Made by a program: the position numbers and the translations under genes. The notes under the pieces were generated by a model. The model saw only the letters and a list, made by a program, of their open reading frames with translations, was not told the origin of the DNA and made no database searches. From a virus (taxonomy: Duplodnaviria; Caudoviricetes), in the IMG/VR virus record IMGVR_UViG_3300022221_000007, positions 1 through 62,533 of that record: a stretch of 62,533 bases of DNA; one strand, 5' to 3'. Shown piece after piece: positions 583 through 62,533 of the stretch; positions within the stretch are counted from its first letter, which is position 1, and every line of letters begins with the position of its first letter.

Positions 583-673
583 CTATGTCTACTCCAATTA
601 GTTGTTAGGGTGCTCTTAAAGAGTATATTTACAGCTTTTTTCACAGTTTAAGGAATTTACCTTTTCTTAACCG

Positions 674-786
674 TTGGCAGGTACGATCCTACTTTGAGTC
701 TTCAGTAACTTAGACTCTTACGTCCTCTTAACTTAGTTACCCCGGAGTGGAACGTGCGCTTACTCCTCCGGCTTATGGAACACCAA
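674..786 (-). ncRNA. putative multi-stem RNA with possible pseudoknot
   Basis: Hairpins CCGGAG/CTCCGG and GAGTCT/AGACTC; loop AGTTAC complementary to upstream GTAACT; closing TTGGT/GCCAA. Confidence 0.4.
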
Positions 787-815
787 GATATAATTATGAT
801 GTTGAATAATTAGAA

Positions 816-933
816 GCCCCAGGTGAGAGTCGAACTCACAATCTAACGTATCAGCACACACAGTGTTGGCTAGGTAGCTCGAACCGTACGTCAAAATTTA
901 TACGCGTGCTTTACCATTAAGCTCTACTGGGAC
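816..933 (-). ncRNA. tRNA-like RNA T1 with 48-nt expanded anticodon loop, no encoded CCA
   Basis: Acceptor GTCCCAG/CTGGGGC, D arm GCTT-AATGGTA-AAGC, T arm GTGAG-TTCGACT-CTCAC, stem GCGTAT/ATACGT closing a 48-nt loop. Confidence 0.65.
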
Positions 934-2960: not shown

Positions 2961-3130
2961 TTTTTGAAGGACTTTGGCGGGACTCGAACCCGCACACCCT
3001 AATTACGTCTAGCTGTTATAGGGAAGATAGTTACGACCATGAGCTAGGAGAGCCTACTTTATCAGCTCCCATCCATATTGGCTTAATCCACACCCCTGTA
3101 TACCAGTTCCAGCACAAAGCCCTTCAAAAA
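2961..3130 (-). ncRNA. tRNA-like RNA T3 (Leu-type D/T arms, ~100-nt central insertion, acceptor extended to 16 bp)
   Basis: TTTTTGAAG-GGCTTTG...CAAAGTC-CTTCAAAAA; D arm CTG-GAACTGGTATA-CAG; T arm GCGGG-TTCGAGT-CCCGC. Confidence 0.7.
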
Positions 3131-3131
3131 A

Positions 3132-3440
3132 GCCAGTGTTACGCCACTGGCATCGCATGTAATCCCCATGACGGGTCAACTAACAGCCACAATAGTTGAA
3201 TAGAAGGTTCTGTTTAACGAGCATTGGCTAAAACCGCCTCGACTTCAGTATGGAAGTTACATCCTCTCATTGAGTTAAAGAGCTGAGTAGGTTTGCTCCA
3301 TTAAACTTTTAATTCAGGACTCCCCCGTTCAAACATGACGGTGGTCGTTCCCAGGCCCGAACAGAGCCAAAAATACCGGCATATAACCGGTTAAGGTAAT
3401 CTCATAATGACCTGTTCTGTTGCCAGGTAGGTCAAACCCC
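3132..3440. ncRNA. non-coding region rich in stem-loops (possible further ncRNAs)
   Basis: gccagtg/cactggc, tcaacta/tagttga, ggttctgtt(3206)/aacagagcc(3368), tgacct/aggtca; no ORF of 60 aa or more. Confidence 0.35.
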
Positions 3441-3453
3441 TACAAACTAAATG

Positions 3454-3783
3454 CTATGCAGCACGTAAAGCGTCAAGCACATCGAACATTTCAGCTTCGG
3501 TTGCCACATCAGCAAACGAATCATCGTATTCGGCATTAACCAATTCTTCACCAGTCATAGACGAAGCTTTGATTAATTCTTCAACATACCACTGCTGGCC
3601 ATCAAGGAAGTCCTTAACAGTCTTGCCTTCAGTTTCCAAGGCCTTAGCCGTAGCCAAGTTAGTCACGATCTGATCAATTTCTTCTTCAGAAAGATCAGGG
3701 CGAATGTTCAGATCCTTAATACGTTGGATCTTACGCTTGGCTTTTTTAAAGGCAGTGGCCAAAACCTGCTGATTACGTTCCAT
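3454..3783 (-). CDS. hypothetical protein with basic N-terminus and acidic C-terminus, downstream of RNAP
   Basis: GAGGAG RBS before ATG 3783. Confidence 0.7.
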   Translation of the reverse strand: MERNQQVLATAFKKAKRKIQRIKDLNIRPDLSEEEIDQIVTNLATAKALETEGKTVKDFLDGQQWYVEELIKASSMTGEELVNAEYDDSFADVATEAEMFDVLDALRAA

Positions 3784-4014: not shown

Positions 4015-6033
4015 TCAAGGCATCAGAAAGTTCACAGACTCCAACGCTTTGTTTGGGGCGTTGCCCACCAAAAGCTTTGGTGCTGGAACATAACGCTCTA
4101 ATCGATCAGCAATCTGATCAAGAGCATCTTGCATTAAATTGTTATCACGCAAGTAACTAAAGAATTCCTGACAAACTTTAGTCACTGCTTCAAACATATC
4201 CGGCATGACAATATAGTCATCATGCTTAACCAAGAAGGATTCACCTTTGTCCAACAGCATACGAGTAATTCTGCGAAGCAGAGTGCCATCGATACTGTGG
4301 GTCAAATTGGCAAACAACCCTCGAGTCTTAACATTGGTACCTTTATGGCTATGGGCAGTAGTGTTCTCACGACCAAAAATAGGCATACCTCTACGATCCA
4401 ATGCCAAAGGCATAGTAGCCATAATCTTGTATTCCTTATGGAATTTGCCCTCGATACGGGTAGATGCAGCAAAAACTGAGAACGGAGTACGTTCCATAAC
4501 GGCTTGGTGAAATGCAGTCAAACCATCATCAGTCTTCCACTTAAGAACATTCTGCGTGTTAGTAACCACATCAGCACCCCAGGCAGCAATCAAGTCAATG
4601 TTATCCACCTCAATACCGTAGGCTTCAACATTGTGCTGATCGACAGACTCAACCGTAAAGTCGTCAGGATTCTCGACATGATTGTGAAGAATCTTAACGA
4701 TAGTCTGAACAGAGGAGCCATGTAACAACGGAGTATGAATCTCTTTAACTGCTCTCCTGCCTAAGTGCATGACACCCTGAGCTGTACCAAATTGAGTATG
4801 AGAGTCATTAACACAATCCTGTCCCATTAGGTTGCCGGCAGTCAGCATCTGCTCTGAGCCACTACAAGAGGCCAGCATGATCAATCCTGAGTTAGTTAAA
4901 TCCTTACCCAACATATAATGGCAAGGAATACCTGCCAAAGTCATCTCAATAGCCCTAGCAGCCTTCAACACATTGATAGCTTCACCACAACGATCTTCAA
5001 ACTTACGGAACTTATCGTGGGTAAGTTCACTGTACTTAACACCCGGCAACGGAACATTTAAAGGGTCTTGCTCCAATGCCCAGATGTAGTCTTCATCACT
5101 AAACCGATTAACAGAATCAAGCTCAGTCATCTTTCCATATCGAGCATCACAAATAATGTGCTTGCAAGTGTTGATAGCTGACTCACCCAGGAGCTTAGGC
5201 TTGTAAGCATCCAACATAGCCACTTCAAATAACTTACCTTGAGGACGGAAGCCATAAAGGGCATTGGCATCATAATAGGTACGGTATCTGCTGCAGTGGT
5301 TAACCGGTAGATAAAACTTCTCCTTAGCAACCAACTCCTTAGCAGCAGCCATGTAATCCACGTTAAACCGTCTGTGACGCTTCACACGCTTCTCATTCTT
5401 AGTTTCGGCATGGTACAGAGCAGAACCCTTATAAAAGTGACTCAGGCGTTCCTCAGTCCATACATCAGACACCTTAAACGGTATAGATGCCTGTTCCATA
5501 TCCATTTGGATCTGATGACGAGGTAACCGTTCAAAGCCAACAAACTTAGACCGCACTATCCCAGGCTCGTCTTCATACCCAACCAAATGGTTAGTAGGCT
5601 CCGGTGTACCACCCAAAATAATAGTAGTCAGGTTGCGCTTACGAACATGACCAGTATCAGGATCAGTATGAGCAACAAGGTTAACCCGACTGGTAACAAT
5701 TTTGTTATCCAACATCAGCTCAACCAAAAGAGCTGCCATAGTGTGACTGACCAATGCCTTATCGAAGTTACTCATACCGGTAGGCCTACGGAACTTAAGG
5801 GCTCCCAGCTTTTTCTCAATCTTTCCTTCCAAAGACTCAATAGCCAACTCGTCATTGTTAGCTTTAAGATGCATAACAATTTTCTCGATCTTCTTACTGT
5901 TAGTTTCCCAAAACTCAGGAGACAAGAAGATCTTATGGGCTACCTTAGTAGGCTCAGCCATATTGGGATATGCCAGCTGGCACTCAGCAAAAGCTAGACG
6001 AAGGTTAGACAAACTAAACTTTAAAATTTCCAT
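4015..6033 (-). CDS. single-subunit T7/N4-RNAPII-type DNA-directed RNA polymerase
   Basis: CSRYRTYY..FRPQG (DxRGR region), motif A KDLTNSGL, motif B RRAVKEIHTPLLHG, ANLTHSIDG, motif C KHDD; RBS favours ATG 6033 over 6048. Confidence 0.85.
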   Translation of the reverse strand: MEILKFSLSNLRLAFAECQLAYPNMAEPTKVAHKIFLSPEFWETNSKKIEKIVMHLKANNDELAIESLEGKIEKKLGALKFRRPTGMSNFDKALVSHTMAALLVELMLDNKIVTSRVNLVAHTDPDTGHVRKRNLTTIILGGTPEPTNHLVGYEDEPGIVRSKFVGFERLPRHQIQMDMEQASIPFKVSDVWTEERLSHFYKGSALYHAETKNEKRVKRHRRFNVDYMAAAKELVAKEKFYLPVNHCSRYRTYYDANALYGFRPQGKLFEVAMLDAYKPKLLGESAINTCKHIICDARYGKMTELDSVNRFSDEDYIWALEQDPLNVPLPGVKYSELTHDKFRKFEDRCGEAINVLKAARAIEMTLAGIPCHYMLGKDLTNSGLIMLASCSGSEQMLTAGNLMGQDCVNDSHTQFGTAQGVMHLGRRAVKEIHTPLLHGSSVQTIVKILHNHVENPDDFTVESVDQHNVEAYGIEVDNIDLIAAWGADVVTNTQNVLKWKTDDGLTAFHQAVMERTPFSVFAASTRIEGKFHKEYKIMATMPLALDRRGMPIFGRENTTAHSHKGTNVKTRGLFANLTHSIDGTLLRRITRMLLDKGESFLVKHDDYIVMPDMFEAVTKVCQEFFSYLRDNNLMQDALDQIADRLERYVPAPKLLVGNAPNKALESVNFLMP

Positions 6034-6141
6034 AGTATATTTCTCCATACTATTAATGTTGAGGTATACCTGATTAAACCATCAGGCAAGTGTGGTTGAG
6101 CACACTCCAAAGCCCTCTATATTTCAAAAGGGCAGGAAAGT

Positions 6142-8658: not shown

Positions 8659-8916
8659 TTAATCGAACAGTGAAAACTGTTCGTGTTTTTCGGCTTCTTT
8701 TACTTCTACATAGATGTGGTGCTTGTCAGTATTAGTACAGGACATAGTACCATTAGGACAATCACTATGTGACTTACCCTGAAACACACAACCATCACAT
8801 GAACCCAAGTCATACACACTTTTAGGAGGAATTCTTACCAGTTTTATGTTCACAATACTCTCCCTATTCACAAGGATCTGCCTCATCAGTACAGAGAGAT
8901 CATTCTCTGCAGACAC
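8659..8916 (-). CDS. Cys-rich hypothetical protein
   Basis: SCDGCVF..C..C pattern. Confidence 0.55.
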   Translation of the reverse strand: MSAENDLSVLMRQILVNRESIVNIKLVRIPPKSVYDLGSCDGCVFQGKSHSDCPNGTMSCTNTDKHHIYVEVKEAEKHEQFSLFD

Positions 8917-8935
8917 CCAACTAAGGGTGTTTCGG

Positions 8936-9145
8936 CTAGTGAGCTTGAACAGTAATCACTGGCTCAGAAGTCACAACTAAGTGAACGCCAGTAACCACAA
9001 GGATTAAGAGTGTCAGTAACCAAGATCCAATCGTCTCAACTGACGTACCCTCAAGGAGTCCAGACACCATAAACAGGCTAATAAGGACCGAGACAACAAG
9101 ACTAATTACTAACAGGAACAGGCCAATGATAAATGCAGGTTTCAT
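8936..9145 (-). CDS. small two-TM membrane protein
   Basis: Two hydrophobic helices; GGAG RBS. Confidence 0.65.
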   Translation of the reverse strand: MKPAFIIGLFLLVISLVVSVLISLFMVSGLLEGTSVETIGSWLLTLLILVVTGVHLVVTSEPVITVQAH

Positions 9146-9292
9146 AGATTTCTCCAATATGTACTCAGTGAGTACAGATTGTATGAATTTCGGACACATT
9201 GAGTGTCATCAACCTAGTGATATAGCTAGGTGGTTTATATAAGGTGAAGTTATAAGTGGACAGTATTGTAAGGCTTGTCCAGAGCCCTTGTA

Positions 9293-10060: not shown

Positions 10061-10233
10061 TAGTTATTAATAAAGTAATGCGAAGGAAGGTTAGTGAGAA
10101 CATTTGTGTTGAAGGAAGGAGCGCAGCGACTGAGTGACACAAATGTTTGAACTAAACTTTCTTGGTATTAGTTTATTAATATGTATGTTTCAAATAAAGC
10201 CCTGTGTATCCCCTTGGGATACCAGTATTAGGA

Positions 10234-10248
10234 CGAAGCTCCGCTTCG
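10234..10248 (-). promoter_or_regulatory. N4 vRNAP-promoter-type hairpin CGAAGC-GGA-GCTTCG
   Basis: 6-bp stem with GGA triloop on the minus strand; core matches the N4 P2 hairpin as recalled. Confidence 0.5.
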
Positions 10249-10486
10249 GATTAATGCTGAAGGGCGTAATACTCCTCGCAAAAGTAAAACCAAAAAAGGC
10301 ACACCACCACCCGTCTTTTATTTCATAAGAGGCAAAACCCCGTTTTGTCTTATTATGAAAGGGTGGTGTGCCAGTGCAAAAGCTTACGGTTATCTTATAC
10401 GGTTATTGAGAAAGAACGTCTTCGACGGTTCCCTTGGTCGCTACGCTCCCTGTAAGAGTATATAGGGAGAGATGGTAGATGTGCTG

Positions 10487-10499
10487 TAAGTCATTGATT
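10487..10499 (-). promoter_or_regulatory. IHF consensus site
   Basis: AATCAATGACTTA matches WATCAANNNNTTR. Confidence 0.5.
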
Positions 10500-10650
10500 C
10501 GTAAGGATTTAATTTTTCTAGGGGGTGACTGGGGTGTCTCTTTTTGTGGTCCGTGGTGTCACAAAACGGGGTAATTGTGTTTACTAAGGAACACGTTTGT
10601 ACTACAATTACCCCTAAATCAGCCCCTAACGTATTCATTAAGGAACACAC

Positions 10651-11070
10651 ATGACCAATAAAGTGACACCTAAAGCCCGATATGGCGTAATCAACTTAGA
10701 TACCGGTGAGATTCAACCTTTCGATGTTTATGAGGGGAAGAAGGAAGGACGATGGGAAAAGGTTTATGCTCAGGCCTTGGTAGATATGCTCAACATCACG
10801 AGTGAAACCAAGACTAAGATTATTGCTTACATGATTAAGAATAAAGATTACAACAATGTCGTGATGGCATCAGTCAGAAAAATTGCCACAGAAACCGGAT
10901 GTAGCTCCCGTACCGTTCAAAGAACTTTGGATCTCTTAGTGGAGAATAGTTTTATTCAGAGATTGCAGAATGGGGTGTTGATGTTTTCTCCTCACATTAT
11001 GAGGACCGGAAGAACTGGCCAGGGTATTGCCGTAATCCGACAGTGGGAAGATGGCCAGAATTTTGAATAG
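10651..11070 (+). CDS. repL: RepL-family winged-HTH replication/maintenance protein
   Basis: INLDTGEI...IIAYMIKNKDYNN...RKIATETGCSSRTVQRTL...MFSP pattern. Confidence 0.7.
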   Translation: MTNKVTPKARYGVINLDTGEIQPFDVYEGKKEGRWEKVYAQALVDMLNITSETKTKIIAYMIKNKDYNNVVMASVRKIATETGCSSRTVQRTLDLLVENSFIQRLQNGVLMFSPHIMRTGRTGQGIAVIRQWEDGQNFE

Positions 11071-11100
11071 TTGCAAACCAGTAGTTAAGTGTACTAGACT
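11071..11100 (+). promoter_or_regulatory. sigma70-like promoter
   Basis: TTGCAA-18 nt-TAGACT. Confidence 0.45.
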
Positions 11101-11131
11101 ATTCACATTAAATTAACCAAAGCAGAAAGAT

Positions 11132-11371
11132 ATGACTACTCAAACACCTATTGAAGCCTATTTACTAACATCCGAATCGAAGGCGGTTAAAGTTCTGCTT
11201 TGGCTGCTAAAGAACCGGGATAGAGAAAATATTATTATCACAACTCTGGATACTGTAGCTGAAGAGTGTGATGTAACTAAAGTAACCGTTAACCGGGTAT
11301 TCCAAAATTTGTATAAAGCAGATTTTTTGGTGAAGGTTAAGAACGGTCAATACAAACTGATGAAGGTTTAA
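11132..11371 (+). CDS. short RepL-like HTH protein
   Basis: VLLWLLKNRDREN...LDTVAEECDVTKVTVNRVFQNL; paralogous to the previous gene. Confidence 0.7.
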   Translation: MTTQTPIEAYLLTSESKAVKVLLWLLKNRDRENIIITTLDTVAEECDVTKVTVNRVFQNLYKADFLVKVKNGQYKLMKV

Positions 11372-38234: not shown

Positions 38235-41200
38235 ATGCCTAACTTTTGTATTCCAGAGTCACAAATAGAGCAACTTCTTCGTAAAGTTGATATGAAAACT
38301 ATCAATGAATCTCAAGATAAAGAAGCTCGCATTAATATTTTTGATATTACTGCAGACATGGTTCGTGAGGTTATCACCAGCGGAAAAACAACGGCTATCG
38401 ATGATAAGCTTATATCCAGACCAGTACGCCAGAAGCTTAATGACGCTCTGAAGATTGACCCGGTTATGGATAAAAAAGTTAAAGCCTTTATCCAAAACCT
38501 ATCTGTTCAACACGCAGTAGAAACATCTGATAACCCTAATGTGAATAAGGCTGTTGCAGATAGAACGCTTAGGCAGGGCGGTACAGCCTTAAAAGAGATC
38601 ATGGATTCCATTGCGGGTGAGATAAATAAAGCAGCTAATAACGGTCTTAAAGTTACTGAAGTCAGTAACAAAGGACACCTACCAAACCTACCTCTTCACC
38701 GAGTTGCAGCCTCAATCGGCCGTAAAATCATGTACACCCAAGGTTTACGTTTTAAGAAAGCTGGTGGTGAGCAAGATCAGAATCTTAGTGCCTGGGTTGA
38801 AACCATGTATTACGCAACAGGCATGTCAGCTATTGAGAACCTGGAGAAAAACGGGTTCCTGACAATACATGAAGCTGGTACCGGTAAAATGGTAATTAAA
38901 GATTACCTGGACTCAATCGACTCTGAGCAAAAATTTGGTCCTGAAGATAAGGTAACTGATAGCATTCCCTCATTGGAACTGAACTTAGAAGCCTTTGGTG
39001 TGGAAACAACCGCAGCTAAACCTGCTAAAGAGATGGCTTTCTTTACAGATTTTGGTGCTGATGTTAGAGGGACTGAGTTAGGTGCCTATGACCAGGTTCT
39101 TAGAGCTATTGGCCTACTGTCACAACCTGCAACCTTCACCATGCCTAACATTGGTGAAGATGGCCCTGCTACTGAAAGTGATCGACATAACAATGATGTT
39201 TATGATCCCGGTGAAGTTATCAACAAAGCTCGTAAGGAAATTGGTGAAAACCCTACGTTCCTTCAAGGTAGTATTCATTCATTCTTCCAACAGCTTCATG
39301 AGCATCTTAAAGATGAAGATATGAGTGCTGCTCAGTGGTTGTCAGGTATTGAGGATAAAACTAAGCTGCAGAACCTATTCGGCTTAGAGCCCTACAGTGA
39401 TGCCTTAGCAGGGCAAGCCAGTGCAGCAGGAAGAAAGCTTTCTAAAAGCACTCCTCTAAATGATGTTATCGAGTATTATGACAGGCTTAAAGGCGATAGC
39501 CCGGTTCCTATCTACATGAATATGTTTGCCGGCAGAAACGCTCGTCTTTACTACGATAACAGCATATTGAATCCTCACAGCTCAAAACTTATCAGACATG
39601 CTATGGCGGTAGATCCCTATACCGTTAAGGTAGATTCTGATGCTTTCAAGTTCATGGTCGGCAAGGTAGCTATTCTTTTAGGCATGGAAGAAGATACCGG
39701 TGCGGTTATGGGTAATGGCAAAGTTACCGAACAAAGTAAAAAAGTTGACCGGGCTCTTGAAGCCTACATGAAATTTAGTTCTGCAGGGTCACTTAATAAA
39801 AAATTAGTTCAGCTAACAAAAATGAGTGAAGAATTTCCAAAGTTAGATTTTTCAGAACTAGTGTCTACCCTGGGGGCAGTACAGGATATCCAGGAGGGTC
39901 TGCTATCTGGTGAAGTAACATCTACTTACATGGTAAGTACTGATGCCACAGCTTCTGGTGGTCAGCTTACTTTCATGCAGGCTATTGGAGCAGACACCAA
40001 TAACGAGGAAGACTACGTTGAGCTAATGAAACAGCTTGGACTCTTCAAAGGCGAGAAGGAGGGTTCTCTTGAAGGCGTAGAAGACGTATATGGGATACTT
40101 AAAAGACGGTTAGAATTCTTTACTGAGAATAAGCAAGATCCTGATGCTCAGTCAGTAGCTGATACCCCAAAAACTGCAGCAATACGATCTACCGTTAAAA
40201 AGATCCAAAAAGTTCTGTTTGAAAATGACATAAGAAATATGTCAAAAATTCCAACTATGACTTTTATCTACCAGCAGACTAAAGGTGGTGCCAGGTCTTC
40301 AATGTCTAAAGACTTCGCTGACATGATTATTAAACAGCTTAGAAACCCTGTGATATCAAAAGATTTCAATGAACTAATTGATTTGGTTAATGAAATACTT
40401 GGCCATGATGAGAAATATACTACGCACCAAAGTTCTTATAAAAAACTGTTAAAGAACAGAGACTTAGATCTTGAACTTCGCACGAAAATTGCTGCTTCAG
40501 GTACTCCTGACTTTTTATATGACACACTAACGTCATCACTGACTAACAAGTACCTTAAAAAGTACCAAAATCGTGCTAAACGCATATTCGAGTTAGTTGA
40601 TAGTGAAGATGCTCTTAAAAATATAAGAGTAATGCCTGCCAGCTACGTTTTGTCTAATCCTTTAAAAGAGGGTGAGAGCTATACGTTGGAACAGTATGAA
40701 AAATATGGTTTAACCATGGGCAAGCAGTTTGAAGTACTTAACAATGTTGCCGGTGTTGATGTGCTTACTCGACCTGACAAGAATAGAGATACTGTTATGG
40801 GTGTGTCTTACATTCATGGAGCAGATACCTCTAATTTGTATCGATCTACTGAGGGTCTACCCACTAAGCACAAAACTGGACTAATCGTTGTACATGATGC
40901 TGTTTACTCAAGCCCTGAGTTGGTGATGGAGTTTGAGAAGAACTATGTTGAGGAAAATCGTCAGTTAGCGCTTAACTACGATATTCATGAGCAGGTTTTA
41001 AAATCTGTTGCTGCTTATGGTGGAAATACGTTGACTAGTAAAGCAAACTATACTAATCTAGTTGCAGAAGTCGAGGCAAGCAAAGCCCGTAAACAGCAAC
41101 TTTTGAAGGATAGTGAGAATGGCTACAATACTGAAACAACTAGCGTTATTGGGGACAGAATTGATTTTGAAGGAATTGACACAAAAAGTCCGTCAAGAAA

Positions 41201-44200
41201 AACGAGCACTGGAACCCAAACCAGTACGCAAGGTAAAGGCCAAGCGAAAAGCGGTAAACGCACTGCACAAAATGGCAAGCCAAAAACCAAAGCGTTCTCA
41301 AAACAGAGTGCATTAGAAATAATGGAGTCCTTATCTGAGGACTCTACTCTTATTCAGAAATTCCTATCTGCCAACCCTTCCGGTGTTAAAAAAGGTGATA
41401 CACCTCAGTACAGCACCAAAACTGATGTAATCACCATTGCCGGAGTAGATCCAAGAACAGGTAAAAAAGCTACCAAGAAAAAGCTGGTAGAACTTGTTGA
41501 ACATGAAGTTGTTCACAGCCTGACTTCTGGGATCGTATCCGATTGGGTATCAAACAAAAAATCCAGTGTTTCTGCAAACATGAATCTCGCGTATATCGAT
41601 AAGGCTGTTAAACGCCTAAGCCGGTTACGTGACCATGGTGAATTGAAGTTACCTAAAGCAGCAGCTGAAAGGGTTAACTACGTTTTAAACTCTCTTGAGG
41701 ATGATATAAGAATATCTGAGTTTATTGCCATAATGAGTACAGAACCTGAAACAGCTAAAGCCGTTTATAAGGTTTTAGGGAATGACCGTGGCAATCTCGA
41801 TAAGATCATTGAAAAGGTGGTAGCTAAGGTAAGAGAAATTTTAGCAACTATTACTGAAAAAGACTTTGAAACTTACAAGGTAGATAGTGAGAAATTGTAC
41901 TCAGCTGTTAACCAAGTCATTCAAGATGGTCAGTCTAGTCGTGAAGGTGATATTAACGCTCACAGAGCCTTAATGTCCTTGAGCAGCAATACAGAGCTAT
42001 TCGCAGCAGACCCTAACAACATTCTTAAAGAAGCCAGAGGAGCCGTTAACTACATAAACGCCGCAGTGGTTAGAAACATTAATGATCCAGCTGTTCGTAA
42101 AGCAGGTGATCTCACCAAAGCTATGGACAGCTACTTGAAAGTTAACTCTCCTATGTACCGTAGAGCCCTTCAACGCTTAAAGGGCATATACGACGATTCA
42201 GAGGCGTTACAGAGCTTAGTCCATAAAATCACAAATGCTGATATTAACAGTGAAAAGAAAAATGAAGTCCAATCGCTGTTTGTTGCATTAAGAGCTACTA
42301 AAAATGAGGTAATCAGTAAAGAGCTTGAAAAATTCAGTGCTATTACCAGTAAAATGTCTGATGAAGAAAAAGAAGCTTTCTTTGACTTCACGCACAAAAT
42401 GGCAATGCAGGACTACTTTCTGTTTGCTGAAGAAGTTACCGACATCGATGCTGAGATAGCTGAGATTGAAGAAATGCATTTTGACAAGCAGCAAGTGGAG
42501 TCTTTAGAGTCTATTGTCAGCATGAACGTAGATGATGAAGTTACTATGCGTACTCACTACAATGTAGATTCAGTAGGGTTCTCAGGAGAACTTAAAAATC
42601 ATGCCAGAAAATTGGTAGTTCTAAAATCTATCAAAAAGCTTGGCGAAGACCGGTTTAACTCGATGAAAGAAAATACTGAGTTAATGGAGCTAATCCGGGA
42701 TAACACCCTGGCTCATGAAGCGTTAATCGCTGAAGGTAGTCTTCAGAATAGTATGGTTCGAGATCACAAACTAAAAGATACTTACGCTGAACCAATAACA
42801 GCTATTGCTATCACTATGGAAGATGCTGATAAGTTCAGTTACACGGAAAAGTCTGGTTGGACAATGGTAGTTAAACCTACAAAAGATAGGTTGGGGGTGG
42901 TTTACAGAAAAGAAATTGACGGGACTTACCAGGAAGGGATGTTTACCGACATCAGAACTGAGAGTGGCGACATTACTGTAAAGGCTAAGCACAGAGACAT
43001 GCCTGGTGTGGTAAAAGTAGGTGACCGGTATAAGCTGATTATCTCTCAGAAAGACAAGGAAAAAATGGGATTAGTTAAAGATGCTTCTCAGAGCTTGGTT
43101 AGAAGCATGGCTCACACCATGACTATTAAAGAATCTGAGGGTATCCGGAATAAGCTACTGGAAAAAGATACTTATTGGGATATGAACGAAAAGAACATGG
43201 AAGATTTAAGAACTATTATTATGGACCCTAAACGGGATCACCCATGGTTCTTAGGAGCTAAAGAGGGAGTTATTTATGATGATTTACCCGCAAAAGTAAA
43301 AGCCCGGTATATGCCAATTGCTTCTACTAAACTTTCTGATTCTGCTAACTTTGACCAAAAAATTCAGTATGTCCGTAAAGACATAAGTTACTGGTTAGTT
43401 GGAGCAAAAGAAGAGTCATTAGCTAAGGATCCAAAACTTAAGTGGGCATTGCGAATCACTAAGGACTTAATAGCAGGGGCTAAAATCGGGATGGTAGTTA
43501 CTAACCCGGCTAAGATTTTGGCGGATAATATGTCTAACGTAGCTTACCTGGGTGTTATGGGAGTTGATCCATTAACAATACAGAAAAACTACCGGGAAAT
43601 CAGTAAGCAGTATAACGATTATCAGAAAGCTAAAAACATTCTGAATAACCTTCGAGTTAAGGCTTATGCTAATCCTAAAAAATATGGCAATCAGATAAAG
43701 CAGATGGAACGTAAATTAAAAGAAATGCCGGCGAATGGATTTGTCGAAAGAGGTTTTGTAAGTTCCATGGGTTCTGAACTGGTTATGCAGACGAATGATC
43801 CATCTTCAGGATTCAAGAGTGATATTGATACAGTTCTGAAAACAGTACTCCAGGACAAGTCAGGCAAGCATAACAAGGTAGCTAAATTCCTAATGGACTT
43901 TTCTAAGTATGGGAATGTTGGAATGGAAGACTTTTTAGAAACCTGGGCTAAACCTTTTGGAAAACTGGATTCGACACAAGTTATAGAGAGCGAACTGGAA
44001 AGAATGGCTGAAAGACTGAGACACATTAAGTCTGAAGACGATGTAGTTTCCTATATGCACCAGTACTTAAACAGTCCTGATAGTGAATTCGTTAAGCTTG
44101 GAAGTCACATGACGGATCTAACGGATATTTTAGCAAAAGAAACTTACTACAGATATTTAGTAGAAGAAGGAATGGATGCTAAGAAAGCGGAACTGGAAGT

Positions 44201-44501
44201 TATTGATTCATTTCCGGATTATAAGGAAGGATTGCCAACAAGAGTTAAGCAACTAAGTGATGTGGGTATTTTGATGTTTCCTACTTACTGGCTTAGAGTC
44301 CAGAAAGCAATCTACCGAATGGCTAAAAATAAGCCAGTTAGTTTTGGTACGGAAATGGTAATTGAAGAGATGGCTGAAATTGAAGCACCTACAATATGGG
44401 ATGCTAATATTTGGAATAAAGCTACCACGTTCCATGGCCTATTCCACACCCCTTGGCAAAATATTGGGGTTAACAGTTTAATACCTAAGTACATCTACTA
44501 A
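38235..44501 (+). CDS. virion-encapsidated RNA polymerase (N4 vRNAP-like), 2088 aa
   Basis: GRNARLYY..NP, motif A TDATASGGQL, motif B RNMSKIPTMTFIY, HGAD, motif C VVHDA. Confidence 0.85.
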   Translation: MPNFCIPESQIEQLLRKVDMKTINESQDKEARINIFDITADMVREVITSGKTTAIDDKLISRPVRQKLNDALKIDPVMDKKVKAFIQNLSVQHAVETSDNPNVNKAVADRTLRQGGTALKEIMDSIAGEINKAANNGLKVTEVSNKGHLPNLPLHRVAASIGRKIMYTQGLRFKKAGGEQDQNLSAWVETMYYATGMSAIENLEKNGFLTIHEAGTGKMVIKDYLDSIDSEQKFGPEDKVTDSIPSLELNLEAFGVETTAAKPAKEMAFFTDFGADVRGTELGAYDQVLRAIGLLSQPATFTMPNIGEDGPATESDRHNNDVYDPGEVINKARKEIGENPTFLQGSIHSFFQQLHEHLKDEDMSAAQWLSGIEDKTKLQNLFGLEPYSDALAGQASAAGRKLSKSTPLNDVIEYYDRLKGDSPVPIYMNMFAGRNARLYYDNSILNPHSSKLIRHAMAVDPYTVKVDSDAFKFMVGKVAILLGMEEDTGAVMGNGKVTEQSKKVDRALEAYMKFSSAGSLNKKLVQLTKMSEEFPKLDFSELVSTLGAVQDIQEGLLSGEVTSTYMVSTDATASGGQLTFMQAIGADTNNEEDYVELMKQLGLFKGEKEGSLEGVEDVYGILKRRLEFFTENKQDPDAQSVADTPKTAAIRSTVKKIQKVLFENDIRNMSKIPTMTFIYQQTKGGARSSMSKDFADMIIKQLRNPVISKDFNELIDLVNEILGHDEKYTTHQSSYKKLLKNRDLDLELRTKIAASGTPDFLYDTLTSSLTNKYLKKYQNRAKRIFELVDSEDALKNIRVMPASYVLSNPLKEGESYTLEQYEKYGLTMGKQFEVLNNVAGVDVLTRPDKNRDTVMGVSYIHGADTSNLYRSTEGLPTKHKTGLIVVHDAVYSSPELVMEFEKNYVEENRQLALNYDIHEQVLKSVAAYGGNTLTSKANYTNLVAEVEASKARKQQLLKDSENGYNTETTSVIGDRIDFEGIDTKSPSRKTSTGTQTSTQGKGQAKSGKRTAQNGKPKTKAFSKQSALEIMESLSEDSTLIQKFLSANPSGVKKGDTPQYSTKTDVITIAGVDPRTGKKATKKKLVELVEHEVVHSLTSGIVSDWVSNKKSSVSANMNLAYIDKAVKRLSRLRDHGELKLPKAAAERVNYVLNSLEDDIRISEFIAIMSTEPETAKAVYKVLGNDRGNLDKIIEKVVAKVREILATITEKDFETYKVDSEKLYSAVNQVIQDGQSSREGDINAHRALMSLSSNTELFAADPNNILKEARGAVNYINAAVVRNINDPAVRKAGDLTKAMDSYLKVNSPMYRRALQRLKGIYDDSEALQSLVHKITNADINSEKKNEVQSLFVALRATKNEVISKELEKFSAITSKMSDEEKEAFFDFTHKMAMQDYFLFAEEVTDIDAEIAEIEEMHFDKQQVESLESIVSMNVDDEVTMRTHYNVDSVGFSGELKNHARKLVVLKSIKKLGEDRFNSMKENTELMELIRDNTLAHEALIAEGSLQNSMVRDHKLKDTYAEPITAIAITMEDADKFSYTEKSGWTMVVKPTKDRLGVVYRKEIDGTYQEGMFTDIRTESGDITVKAKHRDMPGVVKVGDRYKLIISQKDKEKMGLVKDASQSLVRSMAHTMTIKESEGIRNKLLEKDTYWDMNEKNMEDLRTIIMDPKRDHPWFLGAKEGVIYDDLPAKVKARYMPIASTKLSDSANFDQKIQYVRKDISYWLVGAKEESLAKDPKLKWALRITKDLIAGAKIGMVVTNPAKILADNMSNVAYLGVMGVDPLTIQKNYREISKQYNDYQKAKNILNNLRVKAYANPKKYGNQIKQMERKLKEMPANGFVERGFVSSMGSELVMQTNDPSSGFKSDIDTVLKTVLQDKSGKHNKVAKFLMDFSKYGNVGMEDFLETWAKPFGKLDSTQVIESELERMAERLRHIKSEDDVVSYMHQYLNSPDSEFVKLGSHMTDLTDILAKETYYRYLVEEGMDAKKAELEVIDSFPDYKEGLPTRVKQLSDVGILMFPTYWLRVQKAIYRMAKNKPVSFGTEMVIEEMAEIEAPTIWDANIWNKATTFHGLFHTPWQNIGVNSLIPKYIY

Positions 44502-44504
44502 AAT

Positions 44505-44529
44505 AAGGGGCTTTCGCCCCTTCACTTTT
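44505..44529. terminator. terminator between convergent arms
   Basis: aaggggc-tttc-gcccctt flanked by A/T tracts. Confidence 0.7.
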
Positions 44530-45205
44530 ACTCTTGACCGAAACGCCTGGCACCGAACTTAGGTGCTGCAGCAGTTGTCGCACTAGAAGTATCACCGGTC
44601 TTACCCGATTCTTTACGCCCACTAGCAATCCAAGCAGCAACCTGCTCAGGAGTAACACCGTCTTGGTAAGTCACGTTATTCACGTACTTCATTTCAGCTT
44701 CATAACCTTTACCGGCTTCAGTACCGTTAACGATTTCTTCAGCCGTAGCATTGTCAGAAGCACGGAAGAAAGCTTTGATAACTTTCTTTTCAGTGATGGC
44801 ACCATTGTAGAAACCATATTCCATCTGGATACGCATTAAGATTTCAATATCCGCTAAATCTTCCAGAGCAGTAACAGTCTTCATAGCGCTGTTCTTACCG
44901 ATAGGTAGCTCAACTTCAACAGGATCTGCAACTTCGTCCAAACCGGCAATAATCATCATCTGGTTAAACACCTTGGCGCCGATAGTGTTTGGAGAACCAT
45001 CGTTGTTTGTAACACGAAGGTTACCGTAGATAATTTGCTTTTGGCCTTGATGGTCAATAAACAGATCAACAGTAGTTGAACCGCCTTTTGAAATACTAAC
45101 TACGGGGGCTAGAACTTTGACCGGGTAAACACCAGATCCCGTAATGTGGTTACTACCACCTTGTTTAACATCTTCTTTCTTTTTGCTTGCTGTAAAAAAT
45201 GACAT
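44528..45205 (-). CDS. putative ssDNA-binding protein
   Basis: Follows Sak4-like ATPase; beta-rich with flexible tail. Confidence 0.55.
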   Translation of the reverse strand: MSFFTASKKKEDVKQGGSNHITGSGVYPVKVLAPVVSISKGGSTTVDLFIDHQGQKQIIYGNLRVTNNDGSPNTIGAKVFNQMMIIAGLDEVADPVEVELPIGKNSAMKTVTALEDLADIEILMRIQMEYGFYNGAITEKKVIKAFFRASDNATAEEIVNGTEAGKGYEAEMKYVNNVTYQDGVTPEQVAAWIASGRKESGKTGDTSSATTAAAPKFGARRFGQE

Positions 45206-50381: not shown

Positions 50382-50400
50382 TTAAACTCCTAAATTTAGC

Positions 50401-50815
50401 TGTCAAACTAAAACCTTGGATCATAACGTGCGTACTCCTATTGGTCCCGGAAACCTCAAGTACGGTTTGATTACACCAGAGCTATGGATTTACGCAATTA
50501 AGGCTACCTCACTCGATACCAAAGAATTAGCCGACAAGTTTAGTTTGTTTTTACTTTGCGCTTCAGGTAAACGCCTAAAGTCTTAAGAGCACTACACCCA
50601 CAAAGTAAAAACAAGTTAAGTTTGTTTTGCTTTACAGTTCCGTCGTACTTGGGAACTTTACAGGCAGAGTTCGCTACCACATAAAGCAAAACAAGTTTGG
50701 CTGATTAACCTTTAACACCCTTTGAGCCAAGGCACAGGAACAGGCGAGCTTGAACCGGTTACACAATCGTTCTGTATGTGTTTGGGTATCTCAAATAGGT
50801 GTTAAAGGCCAATCA
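50401..50815 (-). ncRNA. tandem array of four long-stem-closed RNA units
   Basis: Stems 50401/50536 (imperfect), 50545-58/50601-14 (14 bp), 50622-34/50682-94 (13 bp), 50702-19/50798-815 (18 bp with G-U on minus). Confidence 0.65.
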
Positions 50816-50821
50816 AATTCT

Positions 50822-51022
50822 TTAGTTGGTTCTGGCTATCTCAGCCTTAGTTCTTAAATCTTCCATTGCCTCTCTTCCGGCAATTTCAACTACTTCTGCT
50901 GGTGTGTAGTGACGATTACCATCAATAGAAGCCATAGCCCAACCTTCACCGTGTCCATACTGAGATACGGGATACACGTTAACGGAAACTAGCCTACTAA
51001 ATTTTGTAAAAAACTGAACCAT
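50822..51022 (-). CDS. hypothetical protein
   Basis: GAGG RBS. Confidence 0.6.
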   Translation of the reverse strand: MVQFFTKFSRLVSVNVYPVSQYGHGEGWAMASIDGNRHYTPAEVVEIAGREAMEDLRTKAEIARTN

Positions 51023-51031
51023 AAAATCACC

Positions 51032-51433
51032 TCAGTATTCGATAAGTCCGTTAAGGTCGTTGTCAAAAAATTTACCCCCAATATTCTCATTAATAAATGC
51101 TGGATCAAATATAGCATCGTAATGAAATAGTAGAGCAGTTTCTAAGTAGGTAGCTGCTTTCTTGCTGGAACATTGGTAGATAATTTCTTTGGTTTTAATT
51201 TCCAAACCTAATATTTTTCCATGACTGCCTTCATAATCTTTAAATGGAAGTGCGGTCATAATACGCCTTGATCGTTTATAGCCTTTCAAAGGAGGCTTCT
51301 TACGCATCGATCTAACAGTCTTCTTGCCTATGTAAGCTTGACCATTAACGTAATCAATACGGTATACAAAATCGGTACAATCTTCAAGCAGATCGTCGTG
51401 ACAACTTATTTCTTTACCTTTGTACAGCCACAT
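51032..51433 (-). CDS. GIY-YIG family nuclease
   Basis: FVYRI...YIGKK...YEGS...LE...NENI. Confidence 0.75.
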   Translation of the reverse strand: MWLYKGKEISCHDDLLEDCTDFVYRIDYVNGQAYIGKKTVRSMRKKPPLKGYKRSRRIMTALPFKDYEGSHGKILGLEIKTKEIIYQCSSKKAATYLETALLFHYDAIFDPAFINENIGGKFFDNDLNGLIEY

Positions 51434-51477
51434 ACTAAATCCCTTAAAGTGAAAAGGAGCCAAGAGGCTCCCTATTT

Positions 51478-59087: not shown

Positions 59088-59099
59088 AGGATCTCCGGA

Positions 59100-59182
59100 A
59101 AGCCTGACTGAGTGCTTCAGCTACTAGCCGAGCATTCTCGGTTGTTAATAACCATTTAACGAAGTTATACTCAGTCAGGCTT
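59100..59182. ncRNA. long-stem-closed RNA unit
   Basis: Perfect 14-bp aagcctgactgagt/actcagtcaggctt enclosing inner hairpins. Confidence 0.55.
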
Positions 59183-59185
59183 AAA

Positions 59186-60048: not shown

Positions 60049-60222
60049 TTAGGAATTTTTAGGGTTGAAGTCTTTGCAGGATTTATCGGTAGTAGGCATT
60101 TGAATAAGTTGTGTTCCAGAATGAAACGCTTCCCAATAACCTTTACTACACCCTGATCGAGTGTAACTTTGGCCATAAGCAGGTTTTCTTTTGAAGTTTC
60201 TGGAACACAATCGACAATTCAT
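60049..60222 (-). CDS. small Cys-containing protein (57 aa)
   Basis: Translated by hand: MNCRLC... Confidence 0.45.
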   Translation of the reverse strand: MNCRLCSRNFKRKPAYGQSYTRSGCSKGYWEAFHSGTQLIQMPTTDKSCKDFNPKNS

Positions 60223-60483: not shown

Positions 60484-60549
60484 TTAAAAAAGAGTTCTGA
60501 GAATTTGTTTTCGCAGACAAGTAGATAGTAACCCAGAACTCTTTTTTAA
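60484..60549. ncRNA. long-stem-closed RNA unit
   Basis: Perfect 16-bp ttaaaaaagagttctg/cagaactcttttttaa with a 34-nt interior. Confidence 0.5.
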
Positions 60550-61983: not shown

Positions 61984-62254
61984 CTTCAGCAACCTCCAAC
62001 TTAATTTGAACATTGTTCTCAGCCGTTAAAGGCTCGCAGGAAGAGACAGCGTAAACATACATGCCCATATCCCAGCAAGCGTCCTTGTCAGGAAATTCTT
62101 CAAAATCCGGAGTATCATGGCACTCACCATACAAAGCTGCTTCCATAGCTTCCTGCTTAGTATCAGCAGTAACTACATGGGTAGCATTTTTCTCAATATC
62201 ACCCAGGGTTAGTTCAAGTTTGACTAACCAATAGTTTTCAATTTGTTCACTCAT
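61973..62254 (-). CDS. hypothetical protein
   Basis: 93-aa acidic ORF. Confidence 0.65.
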
Positions 62255-62533
62255 GCGATAGTCACTCCATTTAAGTGATCGATTTCATGTTGCATAACAA
62301 AAGCAAGAAAACCTCTTGCATCGATTTTAACCGGTTCCCAATTCTCATCGAATCCGGTAACTACAACACGTTTATGACGTTGCATATCTACCGATTCCCC
62401 AGGAAAAGATAAGCAACCTTCACCAAAGCTGGTAACTTTCTTACCGGGAGCTTTAGCGATAATAGGATTGATAATGGCAGTTCGAGTTGCACCATAGTTA
62501 ACTACGATAATACGTTCCAAGAGTCCTACTTGT
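62251..62533 (-). CDS. def: peptide deformylase, N-terminus outside window
   Basis: EGCLS and QHEIDHLNG motifs. Confidence 0.9.

Follow-up and report, generated by a model that had tools for sequence, protein, structure and literature searches.

In phage T7, the RNase III sites that separate early genes each consist of one hairpin of about 50-60 nt, and the REP, ERIC and Correia elements are imperfect palindromes of 70-150 nt in transcribed gaps, where they can make the upstream mRNA more stable or serve as RNase III cutting sites. Phage tRNA clusters, for example that of T4, include stable RNAs of unknown role. The main text of the TIGR description (PMC12045711) presents phage arrays of tandem units, each with a variable palindromic stem around a variable interior, and in the case described there the units are cut at the linkers into one RNA per unit. 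Phages of the N4 type have RNA polymerases of their own and promoters that, in the account given in PMC9163698, function via DNA hairpins. Here, we analysed a tandem array of four stem-closed units among the replication genes of a marine phage of this type. An original prediction, made from the sequence, had taken it for a processed small-RNA array with a constant scaffold and a variable payload; its observation of the array was accurate, and its interpretation is partly supported. By its looks, the array most resembles inter-gene hairpins that process or stabilise RNA rather than a new guide-RNA system, and we favour seeing it as the largest cluster among inter-cistron hairpins of a type that is general in this phage clade.

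The window (the whole stretch of DNA analysed, 62,533 nt) is a linear IMG/VR virus record of 62.5 kb from an N4-style marine podophage. Among named phages, the Alteromonas podophages vB_AmeP_PT11-V19 and vB_AmeP-R22Y are nearest to it, with about 50-65% protein identity in the genes compared; a full-text literature search found no paper on PT11-V19. At the end of the record, a peptide deformylase ORF (62251-62520, minus strand) covers only positions 56-146 of the profile, and since this gene is seemingly cut at the record end, the record would be a fragment or a permuted genome. The features of the locus are collected in Table 1. The 734-aa ORF was named primase-like by synteny since Pfam gave no match. 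The GIY-YIG SegE-like gene is kept in relatives both with and without the array, two small ORFs lie between the exonuclease gene and the DNA polymerase A gene, and the neighbouring small ORFs gave no family match.

Table 1. Positions of the array units, the surrounding genes and comparable RNA elements (window positions, except for the PT11-V19 hairpins).
Feature	Position	Strand	Description
Unit 4	50701-50816	minus	First on the transcript; about 116 nt, rod-like hairpin closed by a 20-bp helix with G-U pairs
Unit 3	50622-50694	minus	14-bp closing helix (13 perfect), 47-nt interior, two small hairpins
Unit 2	50545-50614	minus	16-bp closing helix (14 perfect), 42-nt interior
Unit 1	50400-50537	minus	About 138 nt, branched, closing helix of about 11 bp with G-U pairs
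Junction direct repeat, 18 nt	50534-50551		Copy at 50611-50628, 94% identical, 77 nt apart
Non-coding gap, 440 nt	50382-50821		Minus-strand gene on either side
66-aa ORF	50822-51022	minus	No known family; directly upstream of the array
GIY-YIG (SegE-like) nuclease-domain gene, 143 aa	51032-51463	minus	
Primase-like gene, 734 aa	51478-53682	minus	Syntenic to the 'DNA primase' of PT11-V19
DNA polymerase A 3'-5' exonuclease gene, 217 aa	49728-50381	minus	Immediately downstream of the array
DNA polymerase A gene, 603 aa	47472-49283	minus	
677-aa RNA polymerase (PHROG 414/2051; weak Pfam PF00940) and SSB, respectively	4015-6048, 44528-45205	minus	Parts of an N4-style kit
2088-aa ORF	38235-44501	plus	Positional (synteny) counterpart of the annotated 2082-aa PT11-V19 'RNA polymerase'
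Solitary hairpin	59100-59182	minus	14-bp arms, 55-nt interior; fills the 98-nt gap 59088-59185
Solitary hairpin	60484-60549	minus	16-bp helix adjoining a classical terminator
Candidate solitary hairpin	60109-60210	minus	May fall within a 57-aa Cys-rich ORF starting near 60221 (by eye)
PT11-V19 hairpins	L170 24178-24261, 30017-30083		Both in annotated gene gaps
Type II hammerhead ribozyme	8872-8937	minus	Rfam RF02276, 51.6 bits versus a gathering score of 37

The gap had been given as 415 nt of non-coding DNA between two minus-strand genes; it is non-coding, and its extent is 440 nt. The minus-strand minimum free energy (MFE) structure shows four adjacent modules in the gap with closing helices of 11-20 bp, which agrees with the four tandem stem-closed units that had been described. 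Unit 4 has AAUUUG ahead of it, which begins 2 nt past the 66-aa ORF's stop codon, and CAG-CCA behind it; unit 3 is preceded by AACUUG; and unit 1 has AACUUG at its start and stops immediately short of the exonuclease gene's Shine-Dalgarno sequence. The linkers between the closing helices are short and A/U-rich (AAYUUG). As reported earlier, AACTTGT stands at the start of three units: its minus-strand copies at 50534, 50611 and 50691 form the 5' edge of units 1-3, and they are three of the 12 copies in the window, with no enrichment genome-wide (17 expected). The inverted-repeat arms have lengths of 25, 18 and 13 nt (at 84%, 89% and 100%) and are separated by 42, 78 and 47 nt, respectively.

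Units 2 and 3 have nearly duplicate arms, and the claim that their interiors are unrelated holds: the two interiors could not be aligned (local score of 11 versus 12.5 ± 2.8 for shuffled sequences, a score reached by 708 of 1000 shuffles), and both begin with UG. The layout proposed for the interiors was an unpaired segment of about 20 nt followed by a small hairpin; in the MFE structure, the segments described as unpaired carry hairpins of 3-5 bp. A constant scaffold across the array was not found. The resemblance is confined to units 2 and 3, and units 1 and 4 have in common only their AACUUG or AAUUUG start. The 18-nt direct repeat at the junctions is the likely substrate for the gain or loss of unit 2.

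The folding energy of the gap is -134.1 kcal/mol on the minus strand (z -4.17) and -114.3 kcal/mol on the plus strand (z -3.02), and for each strand none of 100 shuffles was as good. Perfect long-range inverted repeats (arm length 11 nt or more, loop length 20-130 nt) were counted: the window had 10, three of them in the array, whereas 20 shuffled versions averaged 1.65 and had 6 at most. Inside the gap, we found no sigma-70-like promoter and no terminator-like site. The terminator-like hairpin nearest to the array is at 51454-51473, and a window-wide search found no recurring promoter-like direct repeat.

The G-U pairs of units 1 and 4 had been taken to favour the minus-strand transcript. The pairs are present (6 on the sense strand versus 3 on the other strand in unit 1, and 4 versus 3 in unit 4), and each of the four units is more stable on the gene strand, with a gain of 3.1 to 12.5 kcal/mol. 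As a control, random coding windows from the same region were folded (n = 144 windows for each length), and the sense strand folded better in 63% of the 80-nt windows and 78% of the 120-nt windows because the gene strand has more G than C. Since these coding windows show a similar sense advantage, the inference of a strand from G-U pairs or folding energies is weak, and we rejected the asymmetry as evidence for an RNA, as it is not above the compositional background. Hairpin elements of this phage and its relatives, with the four array units included, favour the gene strand in 13 of 16 cases, which is about the background rate, and on the plus strand pairing extends further through the outer arms of these two array units, 2 and 3. 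The G-U asymmetry therefore discriminates neither RNA from DNA nor one strand from the other.

In PT11-V19 and R22Y, the exonuclease gene comes directly after the GIY-YIG-like gene. We compared this slot in the 46 loci in which the GIY-YIG-like gene and the next ORF could be placed; eight of these loci are L004-type copies identical to one another. The gap after the GIY-YIG-like gene is at most 58 nt, save in the L004 type (142 nt), L012 (89 nt), L038 (66 nt), L016 (595 nt) and L065 (225 nt), and the last two gaps were read as coding by eye. Since most relatives hold at most 58 nt at the slot, the array element is dispensable. The L004 type has two stem-closed units on the gene strand in the same slot, and L038 has one stem-closed unit there. 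The L004 array folds at -63.1 kcal/mol on the gene strand versus -50.7 kcal/mol on the antisense strand, and this is weakly above shuffles (z -1.86; 11 of 200 shuffles as good).

The flanks AAUUUG and CAGCCA are common to unit 4 and the first L004 unit, and they stand in the same register to the closing helix. Stem covariation in related phages had been proposed as a check of the original prediction; between these two units, all 11 aligned closing pairs are retained and three of them are changed on both sides, although this covariation arises partly by construction since there are two sequences and the helix was already known in each. Among all loci scanned on both strands, the AAUUUG-helix-CAGCCA hairpin was found at only two places, which are syntenic. 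The common flanks and position are the real evidence that unit 4 and the first L004 unit descend from one ancestor. Both units finish in helix-G-CCA, an end that resembles a tRNA 3' end in sequence and that we treat as a lead only.

Other structured stretches were seen in the relatives. Two genes further on, L013 has a structured non-coding stretch of 703 nt (1452-2154), in which the first hairpin likewise begins with AAUUUG right past a stop codon. It folds at -213 kcal/mol on the gene strand versus -175 kcal/mol on the antisense strand into several stem-closed modules with a T-arm-like 3' end, and it gave no Rfam match at E <= 0.1. In the replication modules of two further loci, L030 has a tRNA-Gln with a tRNA-like neighbour (4346-4514), and L036 has a long tRNA match (4614-4718).

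No RNA run was found to contain the region. Variable unit content was seen when contigs from three other DNA sequencing runs were aligned to it, among them those of the near relatives X3 and X4, which differ from the window in their units. In the X4 contig, unit 1 leads through the junction straight into the arm of unit 3, so that one 77-nt repeat period (unit 2) is gone. In the X3 contig, 52 unaligned letters replace 50552-50683, giving one unit versus two in the window, and past 50703 the two sequences diverge exactly at the CAGCCA junction. In another X3 contig, 13 letters join 50821 to 51039 and the 66-aa ORF is absent. Since X3 has 13 nt instead of this ORF, the ORF is not a required partner of the array. 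Differences in the parts covered by X3 were found at 6 of 145 array positions versus 77 of 949 positions in the flanking genes, a comparison biased to conserved parts because only parts at least 80% alike were aligned.

Hairpins of similar build were found in other gaps of the window and in PT11-V19, a relative in culture (Table 1). The hairpin at 59100-59182 has a stop codon on one side and the following Shine-Dalgarno sequence on the other, and PT11-V19 has 6 long inverted repeats compared to a shuffled mean of 1.8. Since solitary hairpins of similar build occur in other gaps, an ordinary inter-cistron role is indicated. The hammerhead ribozyme lies between the ORFs 8936-9199 and 8659-8916 in the early leftward region, and it suggests that RNA is cleaved between cistrons elsewhere in the genome.

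Several other stretches of the window also drew attention. The 334-nt non-coding gap at 583-916 (minus strand) has tRNA T-arm-like sequences by eye; no tRNA was called, and its fold is not better than shuffles (z +0.99). The region 2977-3588 (minus strand), which includes the 458-nt non-coding gap 2996-3453, gave weak matches to alpha_tmRNA (E 0.012) and to a tmRNA 3' end (E 0.017), folds with z -2.19 and yields tRNA-like pieces in a relaxed ARAGORN run; it may be a divergent or permuted phage tmRNA. Transcription diverges at 10099-11203 (plus strand), where a structured stretch of 340 nt (z -3.03) was found together with four long inverted repeats, and this is probably the early control region.

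We compared the array to known RNA and DNA elements. Rfam gave no match to it at the gathering score, and the best sub-threshold scores, snoR14 (E 0.57) and isrA (E 1), are noise; ARAGORN, run in default mode and relaxed with -ps85, found no tRNA or tmRNA in it. A CRISPR reading was ruled out, as the original prediction had stated. Integron attC sites have the core-site consensus RYYYAAC and GTTRRRY together with a tyrosine recombinase. By eye, GTTRRRY is present at one of the three junctions only, PF00589 had no match in the record, and attC was rejected. Retron msr-msd and IS110 bridge RNA were likewise rejected, as the reverse transcriptase profile PF00078 and PF01548, respectively, had no match in the record. 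Profile searches showed that the record encodes no RNase III and no integrase. The Pfam Nop profile (PF01798) gave nothing in six frames of the record at E <= 10 while the controls scored, in a search of a possibly incomplete record that very remote Nop folds would escape, and the neighbouring ORFs carry no Nop domain. A decayed gene was also rejected: in tblastn, the small ORFs of relatives matched the flanking genes only, and not the array or the 66-aa ORF. Since no ORF of a relative has a homologue in the array, the array is not a decayed gene. A 49-aa TTG frame across units 3 and 2 belongs to no family and would be broken in the relative without unit 2.

Neither the remainder of the window nor the loci compared (two Alteromonas phages, 9 loci from IMG/VR and 53 from metagenomes) contained a sequence relative of the array. 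In pattern scans, the 18-nt junction pattern gave 102 single matches in IMG/VR contigs, which we regard as chance since none extends past the seed, and a 22-nt stretch of unit 4 gave 0 matches. In a set of one genome per bacterial or archaeal species, the arms of unit 4 had 0 matches and the arms of units 2 and 3 had 2 unrelated ones; the latter arms had 0 matches in the IMG/VR viral contigs, and as these arm scans used exact patterns, diverged copies would escape them. A chance match led to a Saprospiraceae MAG contig (L168 120-250) with a large palindrome of repeated units of about 20 nt, which is unrelated. The interiors were also compared to 76 phage translation-start regions, where the duplex energies equal the shuffled expectation. 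The guide or decoy payload that had been proposed is without a target among these translation starts and without an effector or processing protein in the record, and the guide or decoy interpretation of the array is unsupported.

The reading that we favour, tentatively and at somewhat less than an even chance, is that the array consists of sense-strand inter-cistron hairpins at which host nucleases cut or stabilise the replication-gene transcript, and that these hairpins were multiplied by local duplication. The transcription of the array, the strand used, the nucleases that act and the consequences for the mRNA are inferred as follows. The minus-strand modules would be transcribed together with the primase, GIY-YIG, exonuclease and polymerase genes, and the perfect closing helices of 13-20 bp and the AAYUUG linkers would be the points where host nucleases cut and are blocked. 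A double-strand-specific enzyme of the RNase III type would cut within the helices, one of the RNase E type would cut within the linkers, and the stable hairpins would block exonucleases. The polycistronic message would be divided in this way, and the stability of each half would be set. The tandem form would have arisen when units were duplicated locally and recombined unequally through the junction repeats.

The array has what a T7-type RNase III site has, namely a gene-strand helix of at least about one turn between cistrons of one presumed transcript, and on this model its processing into discrete RNAs is plausible. By our analysis, four large modules with branched interiors would be more than cutting needs, which counts against the processing reading. 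If this reading is true, it shows how a little-studied marine phage clade with RNA polymerases of its own punctuates its replication-gene transcripts, and that large punctuating hairpins are quickly gained, lost and duplicated. Such a result would be useful for annotation and for phage transcriptomes, and it would be unsurprising. The AAUUUG-helix-CAGCCA hairpin is a conserved hairpin type open to direct testing.

The common arms and unrelated interiors of units 2 and 3 are explained without extra assumptions by one reading only, in which the modules are excised as stable trans-acting small RNAs (guides, decoys, sponges or anti-defence mimics) with the helix as a handle and the interior as the payload. 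The whole-unit differences among near relatives, with one breakpoint exactly at the CAGCCA junction, fit such RNAs, as do the array parts covered by X3, which are at least as conserved as the flanking genes, and the tRNA-like helix-G-CCA 3' end of unit 4 and the first L004 unit. The layout is also like that of the phage TIGR stem-loop arrays as set out in the main text of PMC12045711. We nevertheless consider trans-acting RNAs unlikely: the record has no Nop or Tas protein, reverse transcriptase, IS110 or other candidate partner, the small neighbouring ORFs have no family match, complementarity to the phage translation starts is not above shuffles, the scaffold is common to two of the four units only, and one 77-nt repeat period accounts for the loss of unit 2. 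We strongly doubt a more specific form, in which the array is a set of modular cassettes whose interiors, released by host nucleases, serve as guides or decoys against functions of the host or of rival elements, and in which whole cassettes are swapped between strains at the CAGCCA/AAYUUG junctions, with no effector of the Nop or Cas type nearby. If the interiors prove to be trans-acting, the array would be of greater importance, because an exchange of whole units from strain to strain would resemble a payload system.

A role of the element as DNA is also rather unlikely in our view. The inverted repeats would then fold on single-stranded or supercoiled DNA for a replication origin or priming, or for single-strand-dependent transcription of the N4 type, and this possibility stays alive because of the N4-style biology and the failed strand test. 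The site is between the primase and polymerase genes of a phage with an N4-style kit (the 677-aa RNA polymerase, SSB and the 2088-aa ORF), both strands beat shuffles in folding, the strand asymmetry is not above background, and the N4 and LUZ7 promoters described in PMC9163698 are DNA hairpins. However, the hairpin promoters given in that account (PMC9163698) have stems of at least 4-6 bp and loops of 3-4 nt, compared to 13-20 bp around 42-78 nt here; the region is not obviously AT-rich by eye (the 2-kb bin of the array has a G+C of 0.396, like its neighbours), the repeat spacings of 77 and 80 nt are without helical phasing, and most relatives replicate with no sequence at the slot. Sporadic presence among relatives and variation between near relatives would suit a selfish or neutral palindromic insert as well, either MITE-like or REP/ERIC-like, which entered a permissive gap and was multiplied by slippage with no benefit to the phage. 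Each unit has terminal inverted repeats and the junctions have the short direct repeat AACTTG, but this repeat need not be a target-site duplication since it is part of the 77-80-nt tandem repeat. The window and the fetched loci hold no second copy, the record has no transposase or integrase, and exact patterns of the arms found nothing for unit 4 in the one-genome-per-species set, with two unrelated matches there and none in viral contigs for units 2 and 3. The X3-covered parts are more conserved than the neighbouring genes, and the flanks are common with a distant lineage (L004) at the same slot. Taken together, we regard such an insert as very unlikely.

Among the known systems, the promoter hairpins of N4-type phages belong to phages of the same type, but they are small and lie about 13-15 nt upstream of the start sites in the account in PMC9163698, unlike the array. 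The TIGR arrays are closer in layout, with tandem units bracketed by palindromic stems (PMC12045711), of which there are four here versus 13 in the TIGR locus described in its main text. In that text (PMC12045711), a TIGR loop has two spacers of 8-12 nt with flanking box C (CCA) and box D (UG) motifs and a linker between them. This layout of boxes and spacers is absent from the interiors of units 2 and 3 by eye, where CCA is missing from unit 2 and occurs once in unit 3, about 30 nt in, judged by the criteria of the main text (PMC12045711) and with motifs too short for statistics on four units. In contrast to TIGR-Tas, no Tas gene with a Nop domain is in the record. Phage tRNA clusters are similar in their back-to-back stem-closed units, their short A/U-rich linkers and the helix-G-CCA end of two units (unit 4 and the first L004 unit); the array differs from them in having no tRNA or tmRNA score and helices far longer than an acceptor stem. 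The imperfect palindromes of the array fold as long hairpins within a gene gap as REP, ERIC and Correia elements do, but these are present in many copies per genome, and no second copy of the array was found. The array differs from the T7 RNase III hairpins in its interiors of 42-116 nt, which are partly branched, in its four tandem units, and in having no sequence or Rfam relation to them. The likeness to T7 is in the arrangement: in both phages, stable gene-strand hairpins lie in inter-cistron gaps of a polycistronic phage transcript (a presumed one in the present phage), the site has no promoter or terminator, and similar hairpins recur at several gaps.
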